In this document: piece after piece, positions 4,658 through 23,546 of the stretch
How the letters are laid out: each line of letters begins with the position of its first letter
Numbering within the stretch: the stretch's first letter is position 1
Assembly: GCF_000020385.1 (NCBI RefSeq)
Contig: NC_010814.1
Coordinates: 960,001 to 992,000 of the forward strand
Reading direction: 5' to 3'
Length of the DNA stretch: 32,000 bases
Source of the DNA: Trichlorobacter lovleyi SZ
GTDB lineage: Bacteria > Desulfobacterota > Desulfuromonadia > Geobacterales > Pseudopelobacteraceae
Notes under the pieces: model-generated
Seen by the model: only the letters and a program-made list of their open reading frames with translations
What the model was told of the DNA's origin: nothing
Databases searched by the model: none
Position numbers and translations under genes: made by a program

Positions 4658-5602
4658 CTATCTGCTCCAGGCCTTCAGGAATGCCTCATTGCCGGTGGGC
4701 AGCCGCTTGCGGTACTTCTGCTCACCCGGCAGCCAGGTGCGTTCTTCACCGGCGTAGACCACCAGGCAGCGCATCACCACACCACCCACCAGTACCAGCA
4801 ATGCACCGATACCCTGGCAGAGTGTGGACGGGATCATGACCAGCACCAGCGGTACCAGTGTTCCCACGAAGATGAATGCGGCCTTGAAGCTGTCGGCATA
4901 CTGGCCGTTGATCCACTTGAGGGCACTGGCCGCTTCAGCAGCGGTGGTGCCGGTACGCTTGATCCAGATATACCCGAGCCATCCGACCAGCTGGAAGAAC
5001 AGCAGGCCACCCACAAAGGTGGGCAGGTTGTGCCAGATCCCCGGAACCGAGCCCGGGGGATAGATCAGTGCACTGACAAAATGGGCAGAGGCACCGGTCA
5101 CAATGGAGGAGAGCATAAACAGGGTCATGATTCCCGGACCGACCCAGAAGGGGCGGCCCTTGTGGCGACCCAGCAGCACCCCCGGATAGGTGGCGACCAC
5201 CAAGCCGGTGATGACGCAGACAACGGCCAGCAGCTTGCGGAGCAGATCCCAGTCCTGCCAGATCAGCTTGTCCTGCTTGAACCAGGATGGATCAAGATCA
5301 AACGAGGCGTAGACCAGTCCGGCAACGATTGCCACCGACATCAGCCAGGCACCGGCCGTCAGGATCGCCTTGGGGTTCATGAAGACCCGCCAGGCCTGAA
5401 ACGGTCTGCCCAGCTCCAGGATCAGAAAACCGCAACCGATGCACATGAACAGCGGCCCCATCACGTTACCCAGCAGGGAAAGACGGCCTGAACCGGCAAA
5501 CAGTTCCAGCAAACCGGTAATCAGCACCATGCCGCCACCCATGCCGGCAAAAAAGAAATCAACGGCCAACATCCAGCCCCAACCTTCATGTTTGGTACTC
5601 AT
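4658..5602 (-). CDS. NrfD/PsrC-family integral membrane (quinone-interacting) subunit of the Mo oxidoreductase
   Basis: 314-aa polytopic hydrophobic ORF with about 8 predicted helices. The N-terminus MSTKHEGWGWMLAVDFFFAGMGGG is typical of NrfD/PsrC. An ATGA start/stop overlap with the upstream FeS gene (5599-5602) indicates translational coupling. Confidence 0.8.
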   Translation of the reverse strand: MSTKHEGWGWMLAVDFFFAGMGGGMVLITGLLELFAGSGRLSLLGNVMGPLFMCIGCGFLILELGRPFQAWRVFMNPKAILTAGAWLMSVAIVAGLVYASFDLDPSWFKQDKLIWQDWDLLRKLLAVVCVITGLVVATYPGVLLGRHKGRPFWVGPGIMTLFMLSSIVTGASAHFVSALIYPPGSVPGIWHNLPTFVGGLLFFQLVGWLGYIWIKRTGTTAAEAASALKWINGQYADSFKAAFIFVGTLVPLVLVMIPSTLCQGIGALLVLVGGVVMRCLVVYAGEERTWLPGEQKYRKRLPTGNEAFLKAWSR

Positions 5603-6165
5603 GGATTCTTTACCTCCAATCCATAGATATAGAAGACATACGGGTCTGTCCCCAGCTCACCCAGCAGGCGGCAGGCATTTTCCCCGTTTACAAGTTTGTG
5701 GACATCACTGGTTTCGTCATCAAGGTCCCCGAAGATACGGGCCTTCTGGTGACAGGTGTTGACACAGTGCGGCTTGAGGCCGATATCAACCCGGTCTTTA
5801 CAGAAGTCGCATTTCTGGACCGCGCCGGTTGCATGGTTCTTGTAACGGGCGCCGTAGGGACAGGCCATGACACAGGCCAGGCAGCCGACACATTTGCTGT
5901 CTTCCACAAAGACAATCCCGTCCTTTTCCCGGCGTTGGGAGGCACAGGTGGGGCAGCCGTCCACGCAGGGCGGATTGTCGCAATGCATACACAGCAGCGG
6001 GATATGGACCATCTGTACGTCCGGGTAGACGCCGGTAGGACCGACCGTGGTCACCGGGTTGTAGATCATCTCAACCGGCAGTTCGTTGTGCACCTTGCAG
6101 GCGACCGTACAGGAATGGCAGCCGATGCATTTTCGTGTATCTATAACCATCGCGTAACGAGCCAT
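5599..6165 (-). CDS. 4Fe-4S ferredoxin-type electron-transfer subunit (PsrB/DmsB-like), four Cys clusters, no signal peptide
   Basis: Cys clusters: CIGCHSCTVACK, CMHCDNPPCVDGCP, CVGCLACVMACPYGA, CDFC..C..C. I place the start at ATG 6165 (MARYAMVIDTRKCIGC). A GGAGGG RBS lies upstream, and this start sits 1 nt after the TAA of the catalytic subunit. The track start at 6192 would overlap that gene. Confidence 0.88.
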   Translation of the reverse strand: MARYAMVIDTRKCIGCHSCTVACKVHNELPVEMIYNPVTTVGPTGVYPDVQMVHIPLLCMHCDNPPCVDGCPTCASQRREKDGIVFVEDSKCVGCLACVMACPYGARYKNHATGAVQKCDFCKDRVDIGLKPHCVNTCHQKARIFGDLDDETSDVHKLVNGENACRLLGELGTDPYVFYIYGLEVKNP

Positions 6166-6166
6166 C

Positions 6167-8672: not shown

Positions 8673-9896
8673 TTATTTCTTTGATTTGACATCCATGGTT
8701 CTGAAGATGTAGGCGAACACAAAGCCCACGACGTTGATGCCGAGTGCGATCCAGAACGCCTGCTCATAGTTGCCGGTGGCAACCCGTACCTTGGCGGCGG
8801 TCAGCGGTCCGAAGATTGCGGCAAGGCTGAAGCCGATAAAGGTGATGCCGTAGTTGACGCCGAAGTTCTTCAGACCGTAGCGGTCGCTGATAATGGTCGG
8901 CATGGTGCCCATGAATCCGCCAAACACCGCACCGCATCCGATACCCGAGGCGACAAAGCCTGCCACGCTGGTGGTAAACGCCAGGTTGAGCATGGACAGG
9001 GCCGATACGATGTACATGATCATGATGGTGTTGGAACGTCCGATCCGGTCGGACAGGGCGCCAAAGCCGACACGGCCCAGGGCGTTGGCCAGGGTGATGA
9101 TACTGACGAAGAAGGCTGCGTTCATGGGGGTCAGCTTGAACATGATCTGGCCGATGGGGGAGGCGTGGGCCAGAACCATCAGGCCGGACATGGCACCGCA
9201 GAACAGCATGATCATGACCACCCACCAGATCCCTTCACTGATCATCTGGGTCCACTTGCTGTCATTGCCTGCCGGCTGTGCTGCCGTGGCTGCCACGACC
9301 GGAGGGGTCCAGCCTGCCGGTTTGTAGCCTGCCGGGGCCTTTTTGATGAACATGATACAGATGGCGATAATGATAAAGAAGGCGGTACCAAGGATCTGGA
9401 AGGTGTTGAGCACGCCGTAGTTGATGATCAGGGCGCTGGCGATCGGTGCCACCAGCATGGCGCCGCAACCGTAGCCGGCTGCACAGAGACCGGCAGCCAG
9501 TCCCCGCTTGTCAGGGAAAAATTTGACCGTGTTGCCGATGTTGCCGGCATAGATCACGCCACCGCCGATACCGGCCAGGGCGCTGTAGGTCAGGTAGAGC
9601 ATGCCGACCTGTGAAACGTAGCCGGAGAGAAACAGGCCGATGGTAAACATCAGGCCGCCGACGATAATGGTTGTTTTGGAACCCAGTTTATCCTGCAGGT
9701 AGCCGCCGCCGATCATGGCCACCGGGCTTAAACCGTGGTTGATCGTAAAGACCAGCGCCAGCGCCGGCGGAGCCCAGCCGAACAGTTTGCCCAGCGGCAT
9801 GGCGAAGACGCTCCATGCGTACAGCGTACCGATACAGATGTTGATGATTATTGCCGAGATCAGTATAAGCCATCGATTGTAGTGTTCTTCTGACAT
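8673..9896 (-). CDS. MFS transporter, oxalate/formate antiporter (OFA)-like family
   Basis: About 12-TM hydrophobic ORF. The N-terminus MSEEHYNRWLILISAIIINICIGTLYAWSVF is typical of the OFA family. I prefer ATG 9896, which has an AAGGGG RBS, over the upstream GTG at 9914 used by the track. Confidence 0.8.
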   Translation of the reverse strand: MSEEHYNRWLILISAIIINICIGTLYAWSVFAMPLGKLFGWAPPALALVFTINHGLSPVAMIGGGYLQDKLGSKTTIIVGGLMFTIGLFLSGYVSQVGMLYLTYSALAGIGGGVIYAGNIGNTVKFFPDKRGLAAGLCAAGYGCGAMLVAPIASALIINYGVLNTFQILGTAFFIIIAICIMFIKKAPAGYKPAGWTPPVVAATAAQPAGNDSKWTQMISEGIWWVVMIMLFCGAMSGLMVLAHASPIGQIMFKLTPMNAAFFVSIITLANALGRVGFGALSDRIGRSNTIMIMYIVSALSMLNLAFTTSVAGFVASGIGCGAVFGGFMGTMPTIISDRYGLKNFGVNYGITFIGFSLAAIFGPLTAAKVRVATGNYEQAFWIALGINVVGFVFAYIFRTMDVKSKK

Positions 9897-10017
9897 AAGT
9901 GTACCCCTTTGCACCTTGTGGTCCCGTATGGGTGATAGTTAGCCTTTTATGCAGATTACGTCTTTTTTCGCGTGGTACCGTGCAGGTAAGCTGTTACTCA
10001 GATGCTGTCTTGTGTTT

Positions 10018-10265: not shown

Positions 10266-10281
10266 AGCAACGAGTGTGCCA
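10266..10281 (-). promoter_or_regulatory. Sigma-54 (-24/-12) promoter upstream of the OFA transporter
   Basis: The minus strand reads TGGCACACTCGTTGCT, matching TGGCAC-N5-TTGCW with correct spacing. Intergenic, correct orientation, about 370 nt upstream of ATG 9896. Confidence 0.75.
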
Positions 10282-10514: not shown

Positions 10515-11861
10515 TTACACCTCGCCACGGGCGGTTGAACGCATATGCCGCTGCAGAATGACGACGACGACGGCAATGATCAATGCGCTGCTGCCGTTGA
10601 CGGCGCAGATGTCAAACACGCTCCAGTTGCGGGCCAGATAAAATCCGCCAACGGCCGGTGCGAGGAACGAGCCGATCTTGCCGATGCCGTAGGCCCAGCC
10701 GATGCCGGTGGCCCTGATCTCTGCCGGGTAGACCGCCGATGCCAGCCCCATCAGTGCGGAGTTGCCGCCGTTCACAAAAAGCCCGGCCAGTACGGAAACC
10801 ACGATGACCACGGCAAAGGGGTAGCCTGAAGAGAAGTAGCCGAACGCCAGCATGGCAAAGAAGGCGGCCAGGAAGACGTATTTCACGACATTCAGCTTGT
10901 TGTATTTGTCCATACAGCGGCCGATGCAGAGTATAGCCACAACAGAGCCAAGGTGAATGAAGGCAAAGCCGATGCTGTACTGCTGGACCGACGCACCGCT
11001 CTTCTTGAGCAGGGTGGGTACCCAGGAAAAGAGGATCCAGAGCAGATAGAAGCTCATGTAGAACAGGATCCAGAGCAGTATGGTCGTCAGCAGGCGGTGG
11101 TCGGTAAACAGTGACTTGAGGGAACCGCCTTTTTCCTTGGTCTGGCTGGTGACCGTCAGTTCGATATCTGCGGAGAGCGGTGATGATCTGTCAATCCGTG
11201 CCAGAATTTCACGGGCCTTGGCAATGGATTTGGCTGTTCCGGTCCTGACCAGGTGGTGCAGGGAATCAGGCAACAGCAACAGGATCAGCAGCGCAATCGC
11301 CACCGGCGCGATCCCCCCCACGATGAAGACCGATTGCCAGCCGTAGTGGGGCAGCAGCCAGGAAGCGGCAAATCCTGCGATCATGGCACCGCAGGGCATG
11401 CCGGCCCACATATAGAGGGAAAGTGAGGTGCGGATTCTGGCTGGAGCATATTCACTGCCGAAGGCCAGGGCGTTGGGGATGGCGCCACCCATGCCGAGGC
11501 CGGCCAGAAAACGGTAGGCTGCCAGTTCTTCGACACTGGTGATATGGGTGGTCATGTAGGTGAAAAAACCAAAGACAATGGCTGAGCAGAACATGGTCTT
11601 CTTGCGTCCGACACGGTCAGCCAGCATGCCCAGCAGTACCGCGCCGATCATGGGCCCCAGCTGTCCGGCACTTAATGCCAACCCCAGTTCGCTCGGCTTG
11701 GCGTTCAGATGCTCGGCGATCTTGGGTAGTGCCACTCCGATGACCGTCAGGTCAAAGCCGTCAAGAAAGACGATACAGAAACAGAGTAGGCAAACTGCTG
11801 TTTGGTAAGGTGAAAAAGGAATATTATCGAATACTTCATTAACGTTCACAGACCTGCTCAC
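10515..11861 (-). CDS. MFS transporter, aromatic acid:H+ symporter (AAHS; PcaK/MhpT/BenK-like) family
   Basis: 448-aa 12-TM ORF. The N-terminus ..FSPYQTAVCLLCFCIVFLDGFDLTVIGVALPKIAEHL, followed by GMLADRVGRKK, is typical of AAHS-family transporters. Confidence 0.8.
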   Translation of the reverse strand: MSRSVNVNEVFDNIPFSPYQTAVCLLCFCIVFLDGFDLTVIGVALPKIAEHLNAKPSELGLALSAGQLGPMIGAVLLGMLADRVGRKKTMFCSAIVFGFFTYMTTHITSVEELAAYRFLAGLGMGGAIPNALAFGSEYAPARIRTSLSLYMWAGMPCGAMIAGFAASWLLPHYGWQSVFIVGGIAPVAIALLILLLLPDSLHHLVRTGTAKSIAKAREILARIDRSSPLSADIELTVTSQTKEKGGSLKSLFTDHRLLTTILLWILFYMSFYLLWILFSWVPTLLKKSGASVQQYSIGFAFIHLGSVVAILCIGRCMDKYNKLNVVKYVFLAAFFAMLAFGYFSSGYPFAVVIVVSVLAGLFVNGGNSALMGLASAVYPAEIRATGIGWAYGIGKIGSFLAPAVGGFYLARNWSVFDICAVNGSSALIIAVVVVILQRHMRSTARGEV

Positions 11862-12007: not shown

Positions 12008-12023
12008 AGCAAGAACGGTGCCA
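12008..12023 (-). promoter_or_regulatory. Sigma-54 (-24/-12) promoter upstream of the AAHS transporter
   Basis: The minus strand reads TGGCACCGTTCTTGCT, a full consensus match, about 147 nt upstream of ATG 11861. A perfect palindrome GTTGCAAAAATGCAAC abuts it on the upstream side. Confidence 0.8.
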
Positions 12024-12182: not shown

Positions 12183-12845
12183 TTAATGGTGTTCTTGCCA
12201 GTATTGAAACTCAAAGTCCCAGTCATCCTTGCGGGATTCCACCAGCCGCTTCATGCGGGCCTTGAAACTGCCCCGGTAACCGGCCTGATCAGGAAAGTGG
12301 TTCTGCTCCCGGATGCAGCGGCAGAGTTCGCTGCCCAGTTCCCGTGCCTTGTCAAAGAGTTCAGCCTGTTTGGGGAAACTGCGCCTGCCGCTTACCTGGG
12401 AGCTGACTGACCCCACTGACTGGGCACCGGTAGAGTTGATGAAACGGACCATGTAGCGCAGCAGTTCATCGTGCTCTGCGCCACCGGAGGTTACGGCCAC
12501 TGCCCCGTACTTGCCCTCAAGCGCCAGGCAGTGGATCAGGCTGCTGCTGCGGTCAAACAGGGTCTTCAGCTGGGCGGTGACACTGAAGATATAGTTGGGG
12601 CTGGCCAGGACAAAGCCGTCGCAGGTCAGCAGGCTGGTCTTGATCATCTCGTAGTCGTCCGGCAGACGGCAGCTGCCGTTCTTGTGACAGGCATCGCAGC
12701 CGAGGCAGGGCTGCAGGTGCAGCGTTGAGAGGTCAATCAGCTCCAGCTCCGCCGCGGCTCCAAGACCGGCCATGACCTCTTCCACCAGGCGGCCGGTATT
12801 GCCGTGCATGCCATGGGGACTGCCTATGATAACGGTGATCTTCAC
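12183..12845 (-). CDS. Iron-sulfur flavoprotein (Isf-like; flavodoxin-fold FMN reductase family with compact 4-Cys motif)
   Basis: 220-aa ORF with a GTG start and an AAGGAAG RBS. MKITVIIGSPHGMHGNTG is the flavodoxin-like FMN loop. CLGCDACHKNGSC is the CX2CX2CX5C motif characteristic of Isf [4Fe-4S] sites. Confidence 0.75.
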   Translation of the reverse strand: MKITVIIGSPHGMHGNTGRLVEEVMAGLGAAAELELIDLSTLHLQPCLGCDACHKNGSCRLPDDYEMIKTSLLTCDGFVLASPNYIFSVTAQLKTLFDRSSSLIHCLALEGKYGAVAVTSGGAEHDELLRYMVRFINSTGAQSVGSVSSQVSGRRSFPKQAELFDKARELGSELCRCIREQNHFPDQAGYRGSFKARMKRLVESRKDDWDFEFQYWQEHH

Positions 12846-13024: not shown

Positions 13025-14731
13025 TCAGGGGGTATCCAGTTGATAGAGACGCAGGGCTGCCTTGCGGTCTGCCACAGGGCTGGTTTTGGGGAACGCCACG
13101 ACGCTGAGCAGTCTGGCCTTTTCGCCTGCCTTGCCCGGCATCAGTTTGAAGTCGGCCAGGTAGCTCTTGTCAGGTGCGGTATGCCAGACCTCGCGCAGTT
13201 CCTTGCCGTTCCAGTGCAGTCGCTTGATTTCTGACTTGAGGTACATCTTGAAGCGGGCCAGGAAGCTCAGGCCACTGTTGGCGCTGACCAGGATGTCGCC
13301 CTGATCGGATGCCTCGATCCGTGCCTTGAGATAGACCTCGCGGCTCTCTCCGCCGCTGGGCACGTCGTCGTTCATGGTGAAGTAGGATTCGGTCCCGCCC
13401 AGCGCATCCACGCTGTCGGCCAGTTCTTCTCCCTCAGGGGTGACGATTGAGAGGTAGCCGTCATCATTCAGATAGGCGATCAGCTTGCGCCCCTGACTGG
13501 TGAACGGGGCAAAGCCGTACAGATTGATCCGTCTGGGCAGTGACAGTTTTGCACCGGCAGTCAGGCGGTCTCCTGAGCGCTTGACCCGGAAGACCGGGCC
13601 GGCAAACTCACGTCCCAGGCTGTCATACTCCTGGGCCAGCAGCACGTCCCCTTCGCCGGGCAGTGCAACCCGGCGCAGATGCCAGGGAATCTTGGTGATG
13701 GTTGTCCGGTAGCGCCCGTCGCGGAATTCAATGCTGATACCGGCCGGGTTGCCGTTGCTGTTCATGGCTGATACATACAGTTCAGGGCGTCCGTTGGGAA
13801 GGAGATCAACAGCATCAAGGGCATAGGCCAAGCTGCCTGCGGCAAGCCGGACAGTGCCCAGTCCCTGGTACCCCTCAGGGCCCAGACGTCCGATTTCAAT
13901 CCGGTCGCTGTAGGCAATGGCCACTTCCGGTCGTCCGTCGCCGTCGAAATCGCCCGCCTCAACCCCCACCGGCGTTCCCTTCAGGCCAGTGTAGCTCCAG
14001 ATCGGTTCACCGCCGGCCAGAACAGCGCCACCTGCGGTCACCGGCGGCAGTACCGCAAGTGCAGACGCCGCTGTCGGTGCTGCTGTTGCTGCCGGTGCCG
14101 GCTGACTGGGCTGGGGTGATGTGGTGGTTGGGTAGCTGTGGATCAACTCGAAATCCGGTGCGCGTACTTCAACTGCCTGGCTGGTCAGGATAAAGTAGAG
14201 TGCCGGGCTGAATGTGGCGGGCCGGGCCGGGCTTGCCGGACGTTTCTGCTGGGCAGCGGCATAGTCCTGCCAGTTCAGATGCGGCAGCGCGGTTTGCAGT
14301 TCTTTGGCCAGCTGTTCTCCCTGGCCGGTGTAATCCCACACTATGGCCGGAATGTCCTGAAAACGATGGATCACGTCACCGCGCTTGACCCCTGCAACAG
14401 TCCCGACCGGGCGACTGTGGGAATAGCCTTGCTTCAGACGGATCAGCCGCAGTAGTCCTTTGCGTGTTTCCTCGGTTCCCAGCACCTTCCCGGTGACCGG
14501 GTGCGTAATCGTGGCGCCCGGGCCGACAACGGTGAACAGATCACCGACGGCAACACCCTGGCCGATCCCCAGGTCAATCAGATACTCTTCTCCGCTGGAT
14601 TGCACGACATATCCCGAGAGCGGTGTGAAATCACGAACAACCTGGTCCGGTAGTGACGTTGCGGCGAAACTGCAGGTGGCGGCTGCCAGCAGCAGTAGGA
14701 CTGTGCAGGCCGTTTTCAAAATGGTAAACAT
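13025..14731 (-). CDS. Exported hypothetical protein: N-terminal beta-rich domain, Pro/Ala linker, FG-GAP/VCBS-like repeat region
   Basis: I place the start at ATG 14731 (MFTILKTACTVLLLLAAATCSFAA, a signal peptide) with a GGAGGG RBS. The track's 50-aa N-terminal extension is unlikely. DFDGDGRPEVAIAYSDRIEIG is FG-GAP-like. There is a PAPAATAAPTAAS linker. Confidence 0.7.
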   Translation of the reverse strand: MFTILKTACTVLLLLAAATCSFAATSLPDQVVRDFTPLSGYVVQSSGEEYLIDLGIGQGVAVGDLFTVVGPGATITHPVTGKVLGTEETRKGLLRLIRLKQGYSHSRPVGTVAGVKRGDVIHRFQDIPAIVWDYTGQGEQLAKELQTALPHLNWQDYAAAQQKRPASPARPATFSPALYFILTSQAVEVRAPDFELIHSYPTTTSPQPSQPAPAATAAPTAASALAVLPPVTAGGAVLAGGEPIWSYTGLKGTPVGVEAGDFDGDGRPEVAIAYSDRIEIGRLGPEGYQGLGTVRLAAGSLAYALDAVDLLPNGRPELYVSAMNSNGNPAGISIEFRDGRYRTTITKIPWHLRRVALPGEGDVLLAQEYDSLGREFAGPVFRVKRSGDRLTAGAKLSLPRRINLYGFAPFTSQGRKLIAYLNDDGYLSIVTPEGEELADSVDALGGTESYFTMNDDVPSGGESREVYLKARIEASDQGDILVSANSGLSFLARFKMYLKSEIKRLHWNGKELREVWHTAPDKSYLADFKLMPGKAGEKARLLSVVAFPKTSPVADRKAALRLYQLDTP

Positions 14732-16023: not shown

Positions 16024-16362
16024 GCTGTGCTCCTCCTTGCTTCAAGTAAGTGATCGCTGCCCTCGAAAGGGCGCGGTAGTATCGCCACGCCAGGCGTGGT
16101 CATGCGGTTACTGACTTACTCCGCAGGCACCGGCTGCGTGCCCGACGGTACTTTTTACAACTCACCTCCTCTCCCCTGAAATGTCGTCATATGAAGAACC
16201 GGCTGCTGCCGGATTGCGTTCCTTCTCTCATTAGTAGCGCCATGTGCGTGAAACGGCTGAGGCCGAGAGAAGGAGGGGGAATCCCTGCGTCTGCACCCTT
16301 CACGCACATGGCACGGGCCGGACTGTCCGGCGATGCTTAGACGCCGGCTTGGAGAGCTGGTT

Positions 16363-16378
16363 TGCAGTCGCCGTGCCA
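16363..16378 (-). promoter_or_regulatory. Sigma-54 (-24/-12) promoter upstream of the porin/FG-GAP unit
   Basis: The minus strand reads TGGCACGGCGACTGCA. Intergenic, correct orientation, about 340 nt upstream of the porin ATG at 16023. Confidence 0.7.
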
Positions 16379-16742
16379 TAGTGGTTATTTGTTGAAATTC
16401 TAGCTAAATCAGTATCTTGCGATGATGGTTGTTTGATTTGATCTTGTCGGTTTGATGTGTGGGGCTTTCATTATGAGAAGGTTTAGTTCTGAATTGAACG
16501 GTCTGTTGCGGGTAGGTCATTCTCATTTCAGGAGGGGGGGACTGCTCTGTTTCGCTACAAAAACATAGCGTCTTCTGAATACAGGGGCGCTGGCCGGTAG
16601 ATCTCAATGCTGCTGCAGCTCATTCAGCTAACAGGGGAAAATCAGCAACCGGGACAGCCCTGAAGAAAAGGGACTGCCCCGGTCAGATTTGAGGCGGGAG
16701 TGATGGCAGGTGGCGCGGGTATAGCGATGACCATTGACGGTC

Positions 16743-16910
16743 TCAGGCCTTTTTGTCCAGTTCAATGGCCTCTTTGCCCTCGCTTGCTTCTTTGAAATTA
16801 CGGATTCCTTTACCGACGGCCCGACCAACTTCAGGCAGTTTTCCTGCGCCGAAGATCACCAGCACGATTGACATGATGACGATAAGCTCCGGCATTCCAA
16901 AACCGAACAT
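16743..16910 (-). CDS. tatA: Twin-arginine translocase subunit TatA/E (55 aa)
   Basis: Below the ORF-track size cutoff. Own translation: [55 protein letters not shown]. This is the canonical TatA pattern of a TM helix, FG hinge and amphipathic helix. A GGAGGAG RBS lies 8 nt upstream. Confidence 0.9.
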
Positions 16911-16963
16911 AATTTATTCTCCTCCAGGGTGATTTGTTGTAACCATTCCGACATTAAGCGGCC

Positions 16964-17482
16964 TTAGGGCAGTTTGAAATTGAAGGTGTGGCACTGCACG
17001 CAAAAGTTTTCACCCTTGGCATGCTGGTGGTGGCAGACGTTGCAGTCCAGCGCCGTTCCGTAATGGGGTGAGGTATGCGGGTTTTGAGGTTTTACCCCGG
17101 CGGTTTTCTCTGCCAGTCTGGCCGGCTCATGGCACGCTTCACAGACAGCGGCTTCAACCGGGGTCTGTTTCTTGGCCTTACCGTGGCATTTGACACAGGT
17201 GACACCGGCCAACTGGTGTCTGTGGCTGAGTGGCAGCTTTCCTGATAGACTTGTCGGTGAATCTTTGGTGTGGCACTCCCGGCAGGCGCTGAGCGCCATT
17301 TTGGCGGTTTTGACGTGTCCATCCGGCAGCACCTTGTCCTTGCCGTGGCAGGCGCTGCAGTTGTCCGGTTTGGCGGAGGTCAGGCGCTTGGGGGCTGCAA
17401 ACGCAGGCAGGGCAACAAGCAGGGTGAGCGCTGCTGCCGTGCACAGCGCGGCAGATCTGGCTGGAATGAAGGTCGTGTACAT
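16964..17482 (-). CDS. Periplasmic hexahaem c-type cytochrome (C-terminal half homologous to the flavocytochrome c3 cytochrome domain)
   Basis: Signal peptide ..LTLLVALPAFAA. Six CXXCH motifs: CSACH, CRECH, CVKCH, CEACH, CNVCH, CVQCH. The tail NPHTSPHYG..CNVCHHQH..CVQCHTFNF parallels the 22845-23213 product. Confidence 0.9.
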   Translation of the reverse strand: MYTTFIPARSAALCTAAALTLLVALPAFAAPKRLTSAKPDNCSACHGKDKVLPDGHVKTAKMALSACRECHTKDSPTSLSGKLPLSHRHQLAGVTCVKCHGKAKKQTPVEAAVCEACHEPARLAEKTAGVKPQNPHTSPHYGTALDCNVCHHQHAKGENFCVQCHTFNFKLP

Positions 17483-17567
17483 GGTTGAAGCACTCCTGAA
17501 AAATGGAATTTTAAGCTCTTACAACGTCTTCAGTCGTTACTGAAACTGATCAGGAACCATGGAAATA

Positions 17568-17668
17568 GCACGCGGATGACACGGATCAGGCGGATATACA
17601 CGGATTTTAAACCGTCTGTTTTCTGAAAATCAGCGTAAATCCGCCAAAATCAGATTTGATCCGCGTGC
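17568..17668. repeat. ~100-nt imperfect palindrome with CGGAT/ATCCG iterations in the flavoprotein-cytochrome intercistronic gap
   Basis: Outer arms GCACGCGGAT (17568-17577) / ATCCGCGTGC (17659-17668). Internal GCGGATGACACGGATCAGGCGGATATACACGGAT contains four CGGAT units, answered by AAATCCGCC and GATCCGCG. Confidence 0.6.
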
Positions 17669-17703
17669 TAATGTCTTTAACTTTACCTGGGTCCGACAGG
17701 CTC

Positions 17704-19257
17704 CTAGCCCCAGTTCTTTTCTTTGGCTGCGTTCTTTCCGGCGATCCTGCCGAAGACAACACAATCGAGCATGGCACAGGTACCGAGGCGCACGGCACCA
17801 TGTACCCCGCCGGTCACTTCGCCGGCAGCGTACAGCCCTTTGATCGGCTTGAGGTTGAAGCCTTTGACCTGGGCATTTTTGTCAATCACCAGACCGCCCA
17901 TGCAATGATGTACCCGCGGCCAGAGCCGGCAGGCATAAAACGGGGCTACGACCGTCGGGGTGGTCTCCGGGAAGATCTTGCAGTTGAAGTCAGGATCCTT
18001 TCTCTTTTCTACATAGGAGTTCCATTTGGCGATTTCTTCCTTGAGCGCAGCCAGGGGAATGCCGTAGTTGGCAGCCAGTTCTTCGATGGTATCAAACCTT
18101 TTGATTGCACCGTTGGCCATCCCTTTTTCCAGGGTGTGTGACAGTACCTGCCGTTTGACGTTTACTGCATCGCCGAAGATGATGGTCGGGTAGCCCAGTG
18201 CCATCATGGCATCGGCCCGTACCTTGCGGTTACCGGTTTCCTGAATGAAGCGCCTGCCGGTTTTGGGGTCAATCATCGGCCCGTAGCCCACCAGACGTTC
18301 ACAAAACTGCGGGACATGTCCGAAGCCCTTTTCATCGGGACTGGTCCAAGGGCCCATCTGGATCCAGTCCATCTGTACATCCATGGCACCTGCCCGGCAG
18401 GCGGCCAGGGTGGCCTCGCCGGTGGCGCCCGGATGGTTGGTGGAGTCAAAGCGGCTGTCAATCCGGGGGTCCTGGATCTGGCGCAGTTCAACGTTCTGGG
18501 AGAAGCCGCCTGATGCCAGTACCACCGCCTTGCGGGCCTTTACGAAGCTTGCCTTGCCGGACCTGTCATCAGGAAATTTGTAGCCCTTTCTGATCTCCAG
18601 GCCGACAACCCGCCCCTCTTTGTTGGTGATCAGGCGTTCCATCTTGGTGGTAAACTGGAATTTGACCCCCATGGATTTGGCCTTGGCAAACAGCGGATTG
18701 ACCAGGCCTGAACCGGATGCATTATCGGTCTGGACCGACCGCTTGACCGAGTGGCCACCATGAAAGACCAGCTTGACAAACCTGGCCCCCACAAAGTTCT
18801 GACACCAGTCAAGCGCTTCACCGGACTGCTCGGCAATGGTACGGGCCAGTTCAGGGTGGTTCAGGTTTGAACCGGCCTTCAGCAGGTCTTTCATGAACAG
18901 CTCAGGCGAATCCTGAATACCGGCCTCTTTCTGCCACTTGGTGCCTGCAACCGCCATCTCTCCGCCGTTGATGATTGAGTTGCCGCCATGGGTACGCATT
19001 TTCTCAATCACCAGTACCTCGGCACCGGCATGCCTGGCCTCAATGGCTGCTGACAAACCGGCAAAGCCGGTCCCGACAACGATAACGTCATAGGTCTCAT
19101 CCCACTTCTTCGGCATCTCGCCACAGGCCGCCTCTGCCTGCCGGACTGTGGCGGCCAGTCCGGTCATGGCCAGACCGGCCGCTGCTGCAACTGCCCCGGT
19201 GGTTTTCAGGAAGCTTCTGCGGGTTACTTCGGATTCCTGGCTGATTTCGTCACTCAT
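17704..19257 (-). CDS. Tat-exported FAD flavoprotein of the fumarate reductase/flavocytochrome-c (FAD_binding_2) family, haem domain absent
   Basis: I place the start at ATG 19257 (MSDEISQESEVTRRSFLKTTGAVAAAAGLAMTGLAATVRQAEA, a twin-arginine signal) with a GGGAGG RBS. DVIVVGTGFAGLSAA is the FAD dinucleotide fold. RVHHCMGGLVID parallels the HHTMGG motif of Shewanella Fcc3. Confidence 0.88.
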   Translation of the reverse strand: MSDEISQESEVTRRSFLKTTGAVAAAAGLAMTGLAATVRQAEAACGEMPKKWDETYDVIVVGTGFAGLSAAIEARHAGAEVLVIEKMRTHGGNSIINGGEMAVAGTKWQKEAGIQDSPELFMKDLLKAGSNLNHPELARTIAEQSGEALDWCQNFVGARFVKLVFHGGHSVKRSVQTDNASGSGLVNPLFAKAKSMGVKFQFTTKMERLITNKEGRVVGLEIRKGYKFPDDRSGKASFVKARKAVVLASGGFSQNVELRQIQDPRIDSRFDSTNHPGATGEATLAACRAGAMDVQMDWIQMGPWTSPDEKGFGHVPQFCERLVGYGPMIDPKTGRRFIQETGNRKVRADAMMALGYPTIIFGDAVNVKRQVLSHTLEKGMANGAIKRFDTIEELAANYGIPLAALKEEIAKWNSYVEKRKDPDFNCKIFPETTPTVVAPFYACRLWPRVHHCMGGLVIDKNAQVKGFNLKPIKGLYAAGEVTGGVHGAVRLGTCAMLDCVVFGRIAGKNAAKEKNWG

Positions 19258-19375
19258 ACGACATACCTCCCTCGTGAAGTTGGCCCTGGCGGGCTGCATC
19301 TGACAAAACTGACTCTGCTGCAGGCGGTTGCCCGGCACACCGGTCCGGCATCCGGGTCATGCTGTAACGTCTGAT

Positions 19376-19391
19376 AGCAGTTCCTGTGCCA
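19376..19391 (-). promoter_or_regulatory. Sigma-54 (-24/-12) promoter of the flavoprotein / 6-haem cytochrome / tatA operon
   Basis: The minus strand reads TGGCACAGGAACTGCT, about 119 nt upstream of ATG 19257. It lies in the divergent region shared with the sigma-54 activator gene. Confidence 0.75.
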
Positions 19392-19502
19392 GTGGTGTGC
19401 ACACTGTAACATACTGAAAATGCTGGATGTCTGTTTTTGGTGCTTGACGCAACACTTTAATTTTGCGAAACGGATTTTAAAATTTGAAGTGTAGGGGCAG
19501 CC

Positions 19503-21140
19503 ATGAAGACCTCACAACTTGATTTCAGGGAACTGCTGTCGTTTAACCCCCAGGGGGGGGTGATCCGTTTTCTCGGCCAACGGGCCTACCTGGTCGATGC
19601 AACTGCCCAGGGGCTGCAGCGCAAAGAGTTTATTGATGCCTTCGGGCCGGAGATGGTGCGCACCATTGTCACCCGCTCGGCCTATGCCCACGGCTGGCGG
19701 GTTGCCGAGACCGTCAAGACCGAGTTGCCGGAGGTCTGGGCCGAGGCAAAGGAAGGCAAGCTGGGACCGATGCTGTGCGCCCTGTACGGCTTCGGGGAGA
19801 TTGTCAGCAGCCGGCGCACCGATGGCCTGGGGGATGAACCACTGGTTGAAACCGTGTTGAAGGATTCGTTTGAGGCTGAGCAGCATCTGATGCTGTCGGG
19901 GGGATCTGATGAAGCGGTCTGCTGGCGCTACACCGCCTTTGCCAGCGGCTATGTATCGCGGGTGCAGGGCCGTGAGGTGTACTTCATTGAGGACAGCTGC
20001 CGCGCCAAAGGTGATGACTACTGCCGGATCAAAGGCAGGTACCTTGAACAGTGGGGGGACGAGATCAAGCCGTACCTGCCCTATTATCAGACCAAGAATG
20101 TGGAGTCCATTTGTGCTGAACTGCGCAGGAAGCTGCAGGCAACGGAAAAACGCCTCAAGCATTACCAGCGCGATATGGCCTTTCTGCATAATGAGTGCGA
20201 AGAAGGTAACTGCTATCCTGTTTCCCGCAGCAGTGTCATGCAGAAGGTGCTTGATTTTGCCTGGCTGCTGGCAGAGGTGGATTCTTCAGTCCTGATCACC
20301 GGTGAGAGCGGTGTCGGTAAGGAGCGGATGGCACTTCAGATCCATTCCCGGTCGCCGCGCTCCAACAAGCCGTTTCTGGCGGTCAACTGTGGCGCCCTGA
20401 GCGAAACGCTGCTTGACAGTGAACTGTTCGGCCATGCCAAGGGGGCCTTTACCGGAGCAGACCGGGATCGCATCGGGCTCTTTGAGGCTGCAGCCGGAGG
20501 GACCCTGTTTCTTGATGAGGTGGGGGAGGTCTCTCCGTCCATGCAGGTCAAGTTGCTGCGGGCGCTGCAGGAAAGGGAAATCCGCCGTGTAGGCGAGAGT
20601 CAGCCGCGAAAGATCGATGTACGGATTATCTCTGCCACCAACCGCAATCTGCAGGAGGCCGTGGCATCCGGCGGCTTCCGGCAGGATCTGTTTTATCGCC
20701 TGAAGGTGATCGAACTGCATATCCCGCCACTGCGTGAACGGACCGAAGATATTCTGCCCCTTGCCCGCTGCATTCTGAATGCCCTGACAAAGGTTATGGG
20801 CAAAAATGTGACCGGCTTTAGCCACCAGGCGGCTGATAACCTGTTGTGCTACGAGTGGCCGGGCAATATCCGTGAGCTGCAGAACGCCATTGAATATGCA
20901 CTGGTCCTCTGTCGCAGCAATCAGATCGATGCCGAAGATCTGCCTGCCGAGGTTCGCAATTCACTCTTCAGGCCGACGGCTGTGAGCGGCATCAGATCCC
21001 TTGAGGCGATCGAGCGGGATTATATCCTTTCCGTACTGGCGGTTCAGGGGAACAATAAGGCCCGTACCGCAGAAAAACTTGAGATCAGTCTGGCGACCCT
21101 GTACAGGAAGTTGCGGGAATACGGTATGATGGATCGCTGA
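19503..21140 (+). CDS. Sigma-54-dependent transcriptional activator, XylR/DmpR type (XylR_N + V4R sensor, AAA+ core, Fis-type HTH)
   Basis: 545 aa. The N-terminus ..GVIRFLGQRAYLVDATAQGLQRKEFID.. and the ..AKGDDYCRIKG (V4R-like) segment resemble the XylR/DmpR A-domain. Walker A is GESGVGKE. The GAFTGA motif occurs as GHAKGAFTGA. C-terminal HTH: ARTAEKLEISLATLYRKLREYG. Confidence 0.9.
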   Translation: MKTSQLDFRELLSFNPQGGVIRFLGQRAYLVDATAQGLQRKEFIDAFGPEMVRTIVTRSAYAHGWRVAETVKTELPEVWAEAKEGKLGPMLCALYGFGEIVSSRRTDGLGDEPLVETVLKDSFEAEQHLMLSGGSDEAVCWRYTAFASGYVSRVQGREVYFIEDSCRAKGDDYCRIKGRYLEQWGDEIKPYLPYYQTKNVESICAELRRKLQATEKRLKHYQRDMAFLHNECEEGNCYPVSRSSVMQKVLDFAWLLAEVDSSVLITGESGVGKERMALQIHSRSPRSNKPFLAVNCGALSETLLDSELFGHAKGAFTGADRDRIGLFEAAAGGTLFLDEVGEVSPSMQVKLLRALQEREIRRVGESQPRKIDVRIISATNRNLQEAVASGGFRQDLFYRLKVIELHIPPLRERTEDILPLARCILNALTKVMGKNVTGFSHQAADNLLCYEWPGNIRELQNAIEYALVLCRSNQIDAEDLPAEVRNSLFRPTAVSGIRSLEAIERDYILSVLAVQGNNKARTAEKLEISLATLYRKLREYGMMDR

Positions 21141-21168
21141 ACCAGGATCGGGAGAAGCGGCGGAGATA

Positions 21169-21211
21169 CAGCAAAGCCCCTGCGGAGTGCGACTCCACAG
21201 GGGCTTTGCTG
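21169..21211. terminator. Bidirectional rho-independent terminator between the convergent activator and flavoprotein-2 genes
   Basis: Perfect 14-bp stem CAGCAAAGCCCCTG / CAGGGGCTTTGCTG with a 15-nt loop and T-containing flanks on both strands. Confidence 0.8.
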
Positions 21212-21236
21212 TTCAGGCCTGTTTGAAACCGGTTTT

Positions 21237-22772
21237 TTACTGCTTGATATATTTGACCGCATGCTCCGCTGCAAAACGGCCGGAGTTGATGGCGTAGCCG
21301 GCGGTGCCGCCGCCCAGCAACAGGTCGTAGGAGTCGCCATACATACCACCGGAGTCGGTACCAACGGCGTAGAGGCCGGGGATCGGGTCACCGCTTGTCT
21401 TGACCACCTGGTTGTTGGCCGTTACTTTCATGCCGCCCAGAGTACCCAGGTGACGGGGGGTCAGCTTGGTGGCATAGAAGGGACCGGTGGCCACTTTACG
21501 CAAGAATTTTGGATCTTTGCCAAACTCGGCATCTTTACGGGTATCGGCTGCTGTGTTCATCCTGGCAACACTGGCCTGCAGCACTTCAGGCTTCATGTTC
21601 AGCTGCTTGGCCAGCTCTTCGATGGTGTCGGCCTTGAAAACGTTGCCACGCTTGCGGGCCAGTTCTTTGTTAAAGGCATCTTCCCACTTGACCAGTTTGG
21701 TGCCTGCCAGAACCCACTCGCCCAGAGGCATTTCAATCCCCTGTTCAACGGCCATCTTGCGGGTTGCATCATCATAGATGGCGTAGGCAACACCACCGAC
21801 ACGGACCAGGGAGTTATTGGAGTAAGGCCAGAAGACGATGTTGGACTCGTCGGTATAGCGCTCACCACGGGGGGTGACCCAGAAATAGGGTTGTACTGCC
21901 AGGGCGATCATCTGGTCGGCCGGGTGGAAGCCGGGCAGACCGGGCCGGTAGCCCTGTACTGTGTTCATGCCCTCAAGATCGGCACCTGCCTTGATGCCCA
22001 TCGTGATGCCGTCGCCATCCTTACCGATGTTACCCACCGGGGTGATGTCGGGATACTCGGGATAGTACTTCTTCATCATCTCCTTGTTGCTGGAGAAACC
22101 GCCGGTAGCAATAACAACCGCCTTGGCATTGATGCGGATCTTCTCGCCGGACTTGTCCTTGGCCCAGACACCAACGACCTTGCCGTTGTCCATGATCAGG
22201 TCAGTACCGGGGGTTTGCAGCAGGATCTGTCCACCTTTGTCGGTAACATACTTGCTGAACACATTGATGATCCGCTCGCAGTGGTAGTCCTTCTTGTTTT
22301 TGCCGGAGAGATAGTCCGGACCCGGAGCAATTACATGCCAGGTCAGGGGGCCGCCATGGCCGCCGACACCGATATATTCAATCTTGATCCCCATTGAGTC
22401 CAGCCAGTCAACGGTTTCAGCCGAGCGATCCACAAAATGTTTTGCCAGCGCGGAATTGGCCTTCCAGTGGCTGTATTCCATGATCAGCTTGTAGGCAAAA
22501 TCCTTGGTGACATTGATGCCGATCCTTTTTTGCAGCTTGCTCTCTGCAGCAAAGACACCCTCACAGAACAGCCCGGTGCCGCCTACCTTGGCCTGCTTCT
22601 CAAGCACTACCACCTTGGCTCCCAGTTGGGTTGCCTGGGTAGCTGCCGACAGCCCCGAAAGGCCGCCGCCGACAACTGCAATGTCCGTTTCCATAGTCTT
22701 TTCGGCATAGGCCGGTAGCGCACATGCCACCAACAATGCTGCCGAAGCGATACTGCTCCACAGTCTCTTCAT
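21237..22772 (-). CDS. Sec-signal-bearing periplasmic FAD-dependent oxidoreductase (FAD_binding_2 family, KstD/flavocytochrome-like, divergent from 17704-19257)
   Basis: Signal MKRLWSSIASAALLVACALPAYA has no RR motif. DIAVVGGGLSGLSAA is the FAD fold. RHLGTLGGMKV occupies the position where paralog 1 has HHCMGG. Confidence 0.85.
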   Translation of the reverse strand: MKRLWSSIASAALLVACALPAYAEKTMETDIAVVGGGLSGLSAATQATQLGAKVVVLEKQAKVGGTGLFCEGVFAAESKLQKRIGINVTKDFAYKLIMEYSHWKANSALAKHFVDRSAETVDWLDSMGIKIEYIGVGGHGGPLTWHVIAPGPDYLSGKNKKDYHCERIINVFSKYVTDKGGQILLQTPGTDLIMDNGKVVGVWAKDKSGEKIRINAKAVVIATGGFSSNKEMMKKYYPEYPDITPVGNIGKDGDGITMGIKAGADLEGMNTVQGYRPGLPGFHPADQMIALAVQPYFWVTPRGERYTDESNIVFWPYSNNSLVRVGGVAYAIYDDATRKMAVEQGIEMPLGEWVLAGTKLVKWEDAFNKELARKRGNVFKADTIEELAKQLNMKPEVLQASVARMNTAADTRKDAEFGKDPKFLRKVATGPFYATKLTPRHLGTLGGMKVTANNQVVKTSGDPIPGLYAVGTDSGGMYGDSYDLLLGGGTAGYAINSGRFAAEHAVKYIKQ

Positions 22773-22844
22773 ATCTTCCTCCTGTGTTGGGTGTAGGTCC
22801 CTGAACGGCCGTGGCCAGGGACGTGAAAACTGTCTGCAAACCAG

Positions 22845-23213
22845 CTATTTAGGTACAAAATCAAAGGTGTGGCACTGTCCGCAGACCAGTTCTGACGGCT
22901 TGTGGGTGCGGTGGCAATCGGTACAGTTGATCGGCCCCATATGGGATTCGTGTGGATTGGCATGGGCCTCTTTGTCTGCCGGGTTGGCGATATGCTTCGG
23001 TTTTGTTTTTGCGGCCAGTTGTTCGTAACTGCCGTGGCAGGATAGGCATGCCTCGTTGGTTGGACCTGCCTGTGGCGCATCGGTCTTGTGGCAATCAGCA
23101 CACTTGAAGCCCATGGTGGCATGGGGGCCGCCAACAGTGAGTGCGTTGGCGCCGGCTACCGTGACGGTGAGCAGGGTCAAAATAAAGAACAGCTTGAATG
23201 GGATTCTGAACAT
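22845..23213 (-). CDS. Periplasmic tetrahaem c-type cytochrome (flavocytochrome c3 cytochrome-domain homolog as a stand-alone protein)
   Basis: Signal peptide plus four CXXCH motifs: CADCH, CLSCH, CTDCH, CGQCH. NPHESHMGPINCTDCH..CGQCHTFDF matches the Fcc3-type haem domain pattern. Confidence 0.9.
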   Translation of the reverse strand: MFRIPFKLFFILTLLTVTVAGANALTVGGPHATMGFKCADCHKTDAPQAGPTNEACLSCHGSYEQLAAKTKPKHIANPADKEAHANPHESHMGPINCTDCHRTHKPSELVCGQCHTFDFVPK

Positions 23214-23319
23214 GAGAGTTTACCTCCTGGGATTTTATATTTTGATGGTGCGATCACCTGCGTGCCCCCGGATACACGTAAGGAGCGGTGTAGGGATAAT
23301 GCACCTGTAGAAAACATTC

Positions 23320-23335
23320 TGCAGATGGTGTGCCA
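23320..23335 (-). promoter_or_regulatory. Sigma-54 (-24/-12) promoter of the 4-haem cytochrome / flavoprotein-2 operon
   Basis: The minus strand reads TGGCACACCATCTGCA, about 107 nt upstream of ATG 23213. Confidence 0.75.
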
Positions 23336-23546
23336 TAAATATAACTTGCCGATATTACGTTAGTAGTATGTTTACAGGGTTGACTTGGGCTATCGAAATG
23401 ATAGGGTTATTACTGAATTGGAAGGGATCGGCTCCCGGCAAAGGGTGTACTGAAACTGCACCGGCTTTCCGGTCTTCCGGCAGGGGAGGACGCAACCCTC
23501 GTCATGGTTGAAAACGGCCTTGATCGTACAAGGATGGTGTTAGCAG

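Follow-up and report, generated by a model that had tools for sequence, protein, structure and literature searches.

Two unfused flavocytochrome c modules in Trichlorobacter lovleyi SZ as probable periplasmic reductases for organic electron acceptors

Periplasmic flavin reductases decide which organic compounds anaerobes respire, and most clades of these enzymes are without a known substrate. The DNA analyzed here raises the question of what two such systems do side by side in one bacterium. The window, which is the whole stretch of 32,000 nucleotides (nt) at positions 960,001 to 992,000 of contig NC_010814.1 (RefSeq assembly GCF_000020385.1; all positions below are those of the window), comes from Trichlorobacter lovleyi SZ, a cultured isolate. 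It contains two gene pairs, here called modules 1 and 2, each encoding a flavin adenine dinucleotide (FAD) flavoprotein and a multi-haem cytochrome c. The gene for a XylR-type, sigma-54-dependent activator lies between them. An earlier note on this DNA had described both pairs as unfused flavocytochromes c akin to the methacrylate, acrylate and urocanate reductases. Are the two modules copies of one fumarate reductase, parts of one system under one activator, or separate enzymes?

The locus is best explained as two independent periplasmic reductases for organic electron acceptors, a reading to which we assign a probability of about 0.62 and in which the direction of catalysis, the substrates, the electron route and the promoter served by the activator are inferred. 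Both modules most likely reduce organic compounds in the periplasm and, judged by sequence, belong to a kind of respiratory enzyme that is already known and is annotated in public genomes. In each reductase a Fcc3-type multi-haem cytochrome c, exported by the general secretory (Sec) pathway, would be reduced by the periplasmic or quinol-linked cytochrome pool and would in turn reduce its partner, an FAD flavoprotein that is a separate protein and belongs to the PF00890 superfamily. Module 1 would be a 2-enoate reductase of the Fcc3/UrdA/Mrd/ArdA kind, exported by the twin-arginine translocation (Tat) pathway. The module 2 enzyme would be VprA-like and exported by Sec, with an active site rich in Tyr and Trp and free of arginine, and each unit would have its own sigma-54 promoter.

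Two flavoprotein-cytochrome pairs

Gene coordinates were taken from the open reading frame (ORF) list of the window, and domains from Pfam and NCBIfam profile scans. The genes are as follows:

22845-23213, minus strand: cytochrome 2, 122 residues; Sec signal, four CxxCH motifs, Fcc3-type tetrahaem domain
21237-22772, minus strand: flavoprotein 2, 511 residues; Sec-type signal MKRLW...PAYA/EK, FAD_binding_2
21170-21210, no strand assigned: hairpin terminator with arms AGCAAAGCCCCTG and CAGGGGCTTTGCT, between the convergent activator and flavoprotein 2 genes, read from the sequence
19503-21140, plus strand: activator, 545 residues; XylR_N, V4R, Sigma54_activat (AAA+) and HTH_8
17704-19257, minus strand: flavoprotein 1, 517 residues; MSDEIS start, TRRSFLK Tat signal, Pfam TAT_signal and FAD_binding_2
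16964-17482, minus strand: cytochrome 1, 172 residues; Sec signal, six CxxCH motifs, the C-terminal four haems Fcc3-type
16743-16910, minus strand: tatA, 55 residues; TatA_B_E at 1e-19, TIGR01411 at 64.6 bits
14863-16023, minus strand: porin, 386 residues; signal peptide, C-terminal Phe, no Pfam family
13025-14731, minus strand: FG-GAP repeat protein, 568 residues; signal peptide; 3' of the porin gene, in conserved order

The ORF list and the domain scans agree with the earlier note on the content and coordinates of both operons, all of whose genes lie on the minus strand except that of the activator. Position 23335, which it had given as the end of the region, is the end of a sigma-54 promoter-like site. 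In both modules a signal-bearing FAD subunit adjoins an Fcc3-type multi-haem cytochrome, the arrangement that defines a split flavocytochrome c. The best solved-structure match of both cytochromes is the N-terminal tetrahaem domain of the Shewanella flavocytochromes c3: cytochrome 2 matches 1qo8 over its whole length (6.5e-10), cytochrome 1 with its C-terminal four haems (5.7e-4). Thus, the Fcc3-type haem domains and the unfused arrangement that had been proposed hold for both pairs. Pfam and NCBIfam scans find no FMN_bind domain in either flavoprotein, as the note had also said.

The two flavoproteins are not simple duplicates, with 28% identity between them. Flavoprotein 1 is 99% identical to a T. 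lovleyi protein annotated as "flavocytochrome c", and a second T. lovleyi assembly has a gene order identical to that of the window. The earlier note had pointed out that a Sec-exported FAD enzyme implies flavin insertion in the periplasm. This is indeed implied, but it is not unusual: Sec signals are found on all of the fused flavocytochromes c from Geobacter and Shewanella (PMC4427408 Table 1), and in Shewanella FAD crosses the inner membrane by way of the exporter Bfe (PMC3551548). Covalent attachment of FAD, as in SdhA/FrdA, was considered and dismissed, since in the alignments the His of the RSHT motif is present in neither flavoprotein.

Active sites and relatives of the two flavoproteins

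Flavoprotein 1 passes the TIGR01813 model of the flavocytochrome c subfamily (478.7 bits, cut-off 285), and its nearest solved structures are UrdA (PDB 6t85; 3.5e-82), followed by the Shewanella fumarate reductases. In an alignment with 16 relatives, UrdA and Fcc, its Arg344, His450 and Arg490 correspond to Arg402, His504 and Arg545 of Fcc3 and to Arg411, His520 and Arg560 of UrdA; the ETGNRKVR segment holds the equivalent of Fcc3 Arg402. This Arg/Arg/His triad, described as common to all 2-enoate reductases (Bogachev laboratory; bioRxiv 10.64898/2026.04.22.720169), is invariant among the 17 members of the flavoprotein 1 family. Hydride would come from N5 of FAD and the proton from Arg344, while Arg490 and His450 would hold the carboxylate of the substrate. 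The position of Fcc3 His365, the ligand of the second carboxylate of fumarate, and of UrdA Tyr373 is occupied by Gly302, and this Gly is also invariant in the family. The substrate would be a monocarboxylic alpha,beta-unsaturated acid other than fumarate, and a 2-enoate is our best guess. Glu100 and Glu320 stand at two further positions of the UrdA signature (Glu177 and Asp388, respectively), the first being Glu or Asp in every family member. The acidic pair weakly suggests an enoate that is urocanate-like or bears another ring. The HHCMGG motif, which the earlier note had compared to HHTMGG of the fumarate reductase-type enzymes, is present, but its Cys is particular to flavoprotein 1; nearly all aligned relatives have HHTMGG and two have HYTMGG.

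Pairs of a Tat-exported flavoprotein and a Sec-exported cytochrome are experimentally established in two cases, Mrd/Mcc (PMC4427408) and ArdAB (bioRxiv 10.1101/2024.02.11.579808). In Mrd/Mcc of Geobacter sulfurreducens AM-1, as in module 1, the gene for a Tat FAD flavoprotein of about 520 residues is followed in one operon by that for a Sec multi-haem cytochrome; both proteins are periplasmic (in module 1, predicted to be so) and the host is Geobacter-related. In length, Tat signal and motif flavoprotein 1 agrees with YP_001951186.1 of G. lovleyi SZ, which was tabulated in 2015 as a haem-free homologue of Mrd (PMC4427408 Table 1), although the identity to Mrd is only 39%. Mcc also differs from cytochrome 1 (seven CxxCH motifs in 231 residues versus six in 172), and module 1, unlike Mrd/Mcc, has tatA and a sigma-54 promoter with an activator. 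ArdAB of Shewanella woodyi, whose activity requires both subunits (bioRxiv 10.1101/2024.02.11.579808), and SO_3056/3058 and SO_3300/3301 of S. oneidensis are split flavocytochromes c with adjacent genes for a flavin and a tetrahaem subunit. The ArdAB-type set of Arg/Arg/His carboxylate ligands and proton donor (bioRxiv 10.64898/2026.04.22.720169) is kept in flavoprotein 1, whereas the distal pocket residues differ and, unlike in ArdAB-type systems, no substrate-producing lyase (DddY, betaine lyases) adjoins the T. lovleyi genes. UrdA (PDB 6t85-6t88) has the same triad and the acidic positions, but it has Tyr where flavoprotein 1 has Gly and receives its electrons through a flavinylated FMN_bind domain rather than from a cytochrome. 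Taken together, module 1 is most likely a cytochrome c-dependent periplasmic 2-enoate reductase of known design, other than a fumarate reductase.

Orthologues of module 1 are found elsewhere. In Geobacter sp. FeAm09 the flavoprotein gene (82% identity) is followed by that for a 6-haem cytochrome (66%); in a Syntrophorhabdaceae metagenome-assembled genome (MAG) a 6-haem cytochrome orthologue follows the flavoprotein 1 orthologue, with tatA adjoining, and tatA adjoins a flavoprotein 1 homologue in locus L005. Genes for a porin paralogue and a methyl-accepting chemotaxis protein come after the FeAm09 pair (L088, 292-8940), which faces a sigma-54 activator of 1043 residues that has a long N-terminal region without a Pfam match. 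Since this activator is of a different class, the same reductase appears to be wired to different sensors across the Geobacterales. The genes for flavoprotein 1 and cytochrome 1 are separated by 221 nt (17483-17703), in which there is a long-range inverted repeat, AGCACGCGGAT...ATCCGCGTGCT; a spacer hairpin has likewise been reported in the Mrd/Mcc operon.

Flavoprotein 2 falls below the TIGR01813 cut-off (227 bits versus 285). At the triad positions it has Val313, Leu442 and Leu485; equivalents of Fcc3 His365, Arg402, His504 and Arg545 are lacking, and Tyr275 sits in a different loop. The alignment also contains no counterpart of the ETGNRKVR segment, as the earlier note had observed. Consequently, the likeness to the methacrylate, acrylate and urocanate systems holds for module 1, with its Mrd/Mcc and ArdAB design, but not for flavoprotein 2. 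The best family match of flavoprotein 2 is VprA (NF053717; 347.5 bits over model positions 3-481 of 481), and the VprA model is also the best, well ahead of other models, for all 25 aligned members of its clade. KstD models of NCBIfam give only 135-146 bits against cut-offs of 788-789. In Foldseek comparisons the AlphaFold model of flavoprotein 2 (predicted local distance difference test, pLDDT, 88) reaches query TM-scores (TMq) of 0.75 with UrdA, 0.76 with KstD (range 0.75-0.77) and 0.74 with cyclohexanone dehydrogenase. The earlier note had placed RHLGTLGG closer to the KstD-like dehydrogenases; the motif is present and the likeness holds for this one motif, but the fold is equally near UrdA and the best family is VprA. 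Motifs invariant in the clade are YRPG, QPY, WP, LGTLGG and YGDSYD. We also considered flavoprotein 2 as a lipoprotein, since LVAC resembles a lipobox, and dismissed the idea: this Cys is variable in the clade and the PA[YF]A/EK cleavage site is conserved.

The active site of flavoprotein 2 is unlike that of every solved relative. VprA of Lactiplantibacillus plantarum (PMC10295242), its closest characterized relative, aligns end to end, but it is from a Gram-positive host and no cytochrome partner is described for it in that review, whereas flavoprotein 2 carries a signal peptide and is paired with a tetrahaem cytochrome. By description, flavoprotein 2 also resembles CirA, CirC and CrdD of gut bacteria, which are extracytosolic and lack both active-site arginines. 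These PF00890 cinnamate reductases rely on conserved Tyr/Trp residues and are induced by their acceptors (bioRxiv 10.1101/2022.12.26.521950); they belong to clades other than that of flavoprotein 2, with less than 26% identity between clades in that study. Module 2 would most likely act on a phenolic compound (vinylphenol or hydroxycinnamate type) by reducing the double bond in its side chain, and a phenolic alkene is the best guess for its substrate. The partners of the flavoprotein (tetrahaem cytochrome or NrfCD/FMN_bind, porin, phenol-type activator) narrow the substrate search to such compounds. Thus, the interpretation of the earlier note was largely right for module 1, while for module 2 a better description is that of an arginine-free flavin reductase resembling VprA.

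The flavoprotein 2 clade is widespread and carries only generic names. Its members are found in the Geobacterales, the Deferribacterales, Shewanella, soft-rot Pectobacteriaceae and gut Sutterellaceae, with identities to flavoprotein 2 of 76% in Geobacter sp. AOG2, 68% in Desulfuromonas, 59% in Denitrovibrio, 56% in Shewanella, about 50% in Brenneria, Dickeya and Pectobacterium, and about 45% in Sutterella. In about 18 of the fetched related loci, a homologue of the 4-haem cytochrome adjoins that of flavoprotein 2; such a cytochrome is the electron-input partner in the Geobacterales, Deferribacterales, Shewanella and Geopsychrobacteraceae. In the Pectobacteriaceae and Serratia, members of the clade are instead paired with NrfC, NrfD, a major facilitator superfamily (MFS) protein and a separate FMN_bind protein; in the Pectobacteriaceae this set is a respiratory-type electron input. 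Cytochrome and flavinylation modules are known to swap within the flavin reductase superfamily (PMC8238504), and the interchangeable partners of flavoprotein 2 fit this pattern. In Dickeya (L003, 2932-9563) the flavoprotein 2 homologue follows the NrfC, NrfD, MFS and FMN_bind genes, and an esterase just upstream matches BD-FAE, a family of bacterial feruloyl esterases, as well as other families of hydrolases. The substrate in that organism may therefore come from hydroxycinnamate esters.

In related Geobacterales module 2 is part of a conserved unit in which a divergently transcribed activator is followed, on the other side, by the genes for cytochrome, flavoprotein, porin and FG-GAP protein. 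T. thiogenes, Geobacter sp. AOG2, Oryzomonas rubra and a Geobacteraceae MAG have the unit complete; in two Geomonas species the porin-like gene is present, and there is no full-length match to the FG-GAP protein. In most genomes module 2 is found on its own, without module 1. The earlier note had missed the porin and FG-GAP genes, which are conserved partners of this module. In the conserved unit the porin-like protein has 380-400 residues; its 61 homologues are all from the Geobacterales or relatives, and the porin is syntenic with module 2 in at least five genomes and with the module 1 orthologue in FeAm09. Its model (pLDDT 70) is an all-beta barrel, for which Foldseek returns Omp38, PorB, OmpT and DcaP at TMq 0.56-0.65. 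A sequence search with the FG-GAP protein against solved structures gave nothing meaningful. In the proposed mechanism the module 2 cytochrome and flavoprotein belong with the downstream porin and FG-GAP genes, and the phenolic substrate would enter through this dedicated porin.

Promoters, activator and rearrangement of the locus

Sites that resemble sigma-54 promoters with at most one mismatch are present eight times in the window, compared to 1.9 expected, and none of 100 shuffles reaches eight. Five of the eight are intergenic and on the correct strand. These five sites and the putative regulatory elements are:

23390-23420, minus strand: module 2 upstream element, a putative activator site; CAATTCAG box at 23413-23420 and palindrome CTATCATTTCGATAG at 23390-23404
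23320-23335, minus strand: sigma-54-like site TGGCACACCATCTGCA, 107 nt upstream of cytochrome 2
19453-19491, minus strand: imperfect palindrome CACTTCAAATTTT..AAAATTAAAGTG between activator and flavoprotein 1, a candidate module 1 activator site, read from the sequence
19376-19391, minus strand: sigma-54-like site TGGCACAGGAACTGCT, 119 nt upstream of flavoprotein 1
16465-16496, minus strand: second module 2-type element, before the porin promoter; CAATTCAG at 16489-16496 and degenerate palindrome TTCTCATAATGAAAG at 16465-16479
16363-16378, minus strand: sigma-54-like site TGGCACGGCGACTGCA, 340 nt upstream of the porin gene
16239-16312, minus strand: long, conserved hairpin in the porin 5' leader, with loop motif CCTCCTTCTCTC
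12008-12023: sigma-54-like site of perfect consensus before the aromatic acid symporter-like MFS gene
10266-10281: sigma-54-like site of perfect consensus before the lactate-type MFS gene

A sigma-54-like promoter precedes the cytochrome gene in every module 2 locus examined, and the porin site TGGCACGGCGACTGCA is identical in T. thiogenes and present in the Geobacteraceae MAG (L009). The CAATTCAG box occurs only twice on the minus strand of the window, at the cytochrome 2 and porin promoters. The palindrome at 23390-23404 is its sole exact match in the window, and the cytochrome genes of T. thiogenes, Geomonas and the Geobacteraceae MAG have a palindrome of the same type upstream; in the MAG TTATCATAATGATAG precedes the porin promoter. 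The palindrome before flavoprotein 1 (19453-19491) is unlike this element. The position of the activator between the modules, which the earlier note had pointed out, does not show shared control: cytochrome 2 and porin share an upstream element from which that of flavoprotein 1 differs. A search for a 10-mer common to the regions upstream of the five sigma-54 sites (those before cytochrome 2, flavoprotein 1, the porin and both MFS genes) found none in four or more of them, so that the five promoters are not demonstrably one regulon.

The structures at 16199-16378, in the 340-nt leader of the porin gene, may be a cis-regulatory RNA. In the MAG the stem of the long hairpin differs in sequence yet still pairs, and the loop motif is kept. 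On the 3' side of the hairpin in the window are GAGAGAAGG (16221-16229), which is complementary to CCTCCTTCTCTC, and a small terminator-like hairpin (16199-16212). Rfam gave no match in a scan of the whole window or in a permissive scan of the porin leader.

The sensor domain of the activator matches those of MopR, PoxR and DmpR (PDB 5kbe, 5fru and 6iy8) at 1e-18 to 1e-20. With its domains and the zinc site, Cys155/Glu178/Cys181/Cys189, which it has in common with these proteins, the activator belongs to the XylR/DmpR/MopR class. In MopR, His106 and Trp134 hydrogen-bond the phenol hydroxyl, and His106 serves as the selectivity filter for phenol (PMC10598577). Both residues are kept in all six module 2-linked activators with which the T. 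lovleyi protein was compared (T. thiogenes, Geobacter sp. AOG2, two Geomonas, a Geobacteraceae MAG and a Nitrospiraceae MAG), but the window activator has Cys and Leu at these positions and so lacks the mark of a phenol sensor. The earlier note was right to place the activator in the aromatic-sensing family. The window activator is also an outlier, with 53-57% identity to the six others, which are 58-68% identical to one another. Common control of both modules is therefore not demonstrated: the activator that lies between them is a divergent copy without the phenol-anchoring residues. A metagenome scan with the activator for the Cys/Leu variant beside module 1 returned only generic AAA+ relatives of 37-52% identity.

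Comparison with T. thiogenes suggests how this situation arose. In that species the order is gluQ, activator, cytochrome 2 and flavoprotein 2, porin and FG-GAP; in the window it is gluQ, cytochrome 2 and flavoprotein 2, activator, flavoprotein 1, cytochrome 1 and tatA, porin and FG-GAP. Between the two species the activators are 55% identical, whereas the neighbouring cytochromes and flavoproteins are 87-89% identical. As judged from these comparisons, the T. lovleyi locus is recently rearranged relative to that of T. thiogenes. The simplest reading is that module 1 entered an ancestral module 2 locus, that the activator now faces module 1 and that its effector pocket has changed. The promoters of cytochrome 2 and the porin have retained the old upstream element. 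A remnant of a deleted activator gene was sought between gluQ and cytochrome 2; the only match, of 20 residues (E = 0.04), is not convincing. In the relatives, module 2 would be driven by the divergently transcribed, phenol-type XylR-family activator; in T. lovleyi the divergent local activator, having lost the phenol-anchoring residues, faces module 1.

Competing explanations and neighbouring genes

The main rival for module 2 is an enzyme that works in the opposite direction, that is, a periplasmic flavocytochrome dehydrogenase that would oxidize a phenolic or alicyclic substrate and pass the electrons through the tetrahaem cytochrome to the respiratory chain, as a desaturase like KstD or cyclohexanone dehydrogenase or, in its role, like p-cresol methylhydroxylase. 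Its fold is as near to KstD and cyclohexanone dehydrogenase as to UrdA, and the C-terminal motif region of flavoprotein 2 aligns with KstD. Phenol-type XylR-family activators classically govern catabolic pathways, and a gene not far away that has a sigma-54 promoter is for an aromatic acid importer. However, sequence scores favour reductases (VprA 1e-103, Fcc 5e-42, KstD 3e-21), the Pectobacteriaceae members are accompanied by NrfCD and FMN_bind, typical of quinol-fed reductases, and the conserved unit holds no further catabolic genes, so that an oxidative module 2 seems unlikely. That both modules are redundant periplasmic fumarate/succinate enzymes is highly improbable. Some homologues are named "fumarate reductase flavoprotein subunit" or "flavocytochrome c", but the invariant Gly of flavoprotein 1 at Fcc3 His365, the loss of all four Fcc3 residues in flavoprotein 2 and the low identity between the two proteins argue against it. 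The comparison of these residues, with Gly302 in one protein and the triad absent from the other, argues against two plain fumarate reductases with identical active sites, the case that the earlier note had named as its refutation.

It is also conceivable, though quite improbable, that both modules form one system under the single activator, for example one in which module 1 reduces a hydroxycinnamate and module 2 the vinylphenol that its decarboxylation gives, or in which they act on two double bonds of one molecule. The locus has one activator and sigma-54 promoters before both modules and the porin gene; the recognition helix of the activator helix-turn-helix, ATLYRKL, is identical in the window and in the module 2-linked activators. 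In a Smithellaceae genome (L054), moreover, a flavoprotein 1-type module and a flavoprotein 2-type gene flank a sigma-54 activator, together with an MFS gene related to the aromatic acid symporters. These points are countered by the different element upstream of flavoprotein 1, by module 1 orthologues that have another class of activator or none nearby, by the finding of module 2 alone in most genomes, and by the recent origin of the T. lovleyi arrangement relative to T. thiogenes.

The preferred reading, two independent reductases, has several points against it in its details. The 600-bit equivalog cut-off of the VprA model is not reached by flavoprotein 2 (347.5 bits) or even by the best member of its clade (1.3e-127). 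Since KstD and cyclohexanone dehydrogenase, to which flavoprotein 2 is as similar by fold as to UrdA, are dehydrogenases, it may catalyse either direction. Residue-based calls are fallible: CrdB of Vibrio ruber looked like an acrylate reductase, and it reduces cinnamates. Because the local activator is without the phenol-anchoring residues, the phenolic substrate is argued from the relatives and not from T. lovleyi. Likewise, the porin of the window is assigned to module 2 by synteny with T. thiogenes only, as the porin of FeAm09 accompanies module 1, and the urocanate-like guess for module 1 is weak because flavoprotein 1 has no equivalent of UrdA Tyr373.

A bolder proposal, which we regard as possible but doubtful, is that the conserved Geobacterales unit is a respiratory system not described so far, in which carboxylate-free plant vinylphenols or other phenolic alkenes would serve as periplasmic terminal acceptors, and that its activator in T. 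lovleyi was captured by a horizontally acquired 2-enoate reductase. This system would comprise the phenol-type sigma-54 activator, tetrahaem cytochrome, Sec-exported VprA-like flavoprotein, dedicated porin and FG-GAP protein, in metal- and organohalide-respiring hosts. If this is true, plant phenylpropanoid derivatives would join the acceptors of subsurface metal and organohalide respirers.

Two transporter genes with sigma-54-like sites lie further along the window. The MFS gene at 10515-11861 had been called an AAHS transporter in the earlier note; the aromatic acid/H+ symporter family is its best match, followed by PcaK and MhpT, but the score of 346 bits is under the cut-off of 418. In Smithella and Smithellaceae (L052, L054) genes related to it immediately precede those for flavoprotein 2 homologues. 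The MFS gene at 8673-9914, preceded by the site at 10266-10281, scores 431 bits with the NCBIfam model of the L-lactate transporter SfMCT, above the cut-off of 320.

The molybdopterin oxidoreductase set at 4658-8404 has three genes: one for the catalytic subunit, which is nearest to thiosulfate/polysulfide reductase, one for a 4Fe-4S protein and one for a membrane protein of the NrfD type. The called start of the catalytic subunit is at the Fe4S4 domain, and it has no obvious Tat signal. These genes were considered as the quinol dehydrogenase of the modules and set aside, as the relatives give no support from synteny.

Directly 3' of the FG-GAP gene, on the same strand, is a gene (12183-12845) for an NADPH-dependent FMN reductase (FMN_red) that lacks a signal peptide; an FMN_red homologue is found near a flavoprotein 2 homologue in one further locus (L076). 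In Geobacter sp. AOG2 and Oryzomonas the gene that follows FG-GAP is one of riboflavin synthesis (GTP cyclohydrolase II/DHBP synthase). The flavin genes at this position could be linked to flavin supply or could be there by coincidence. Finally, a comparison of the two T. lovleyi assemblies gives identities of 96-100% for the flanking proteins and lower values for flavoprotein 2 (92%), the porin (84%) and the FG-GAP protein (83%). This mosaic divergence suggests recombination or selection acting on envelope proteins.

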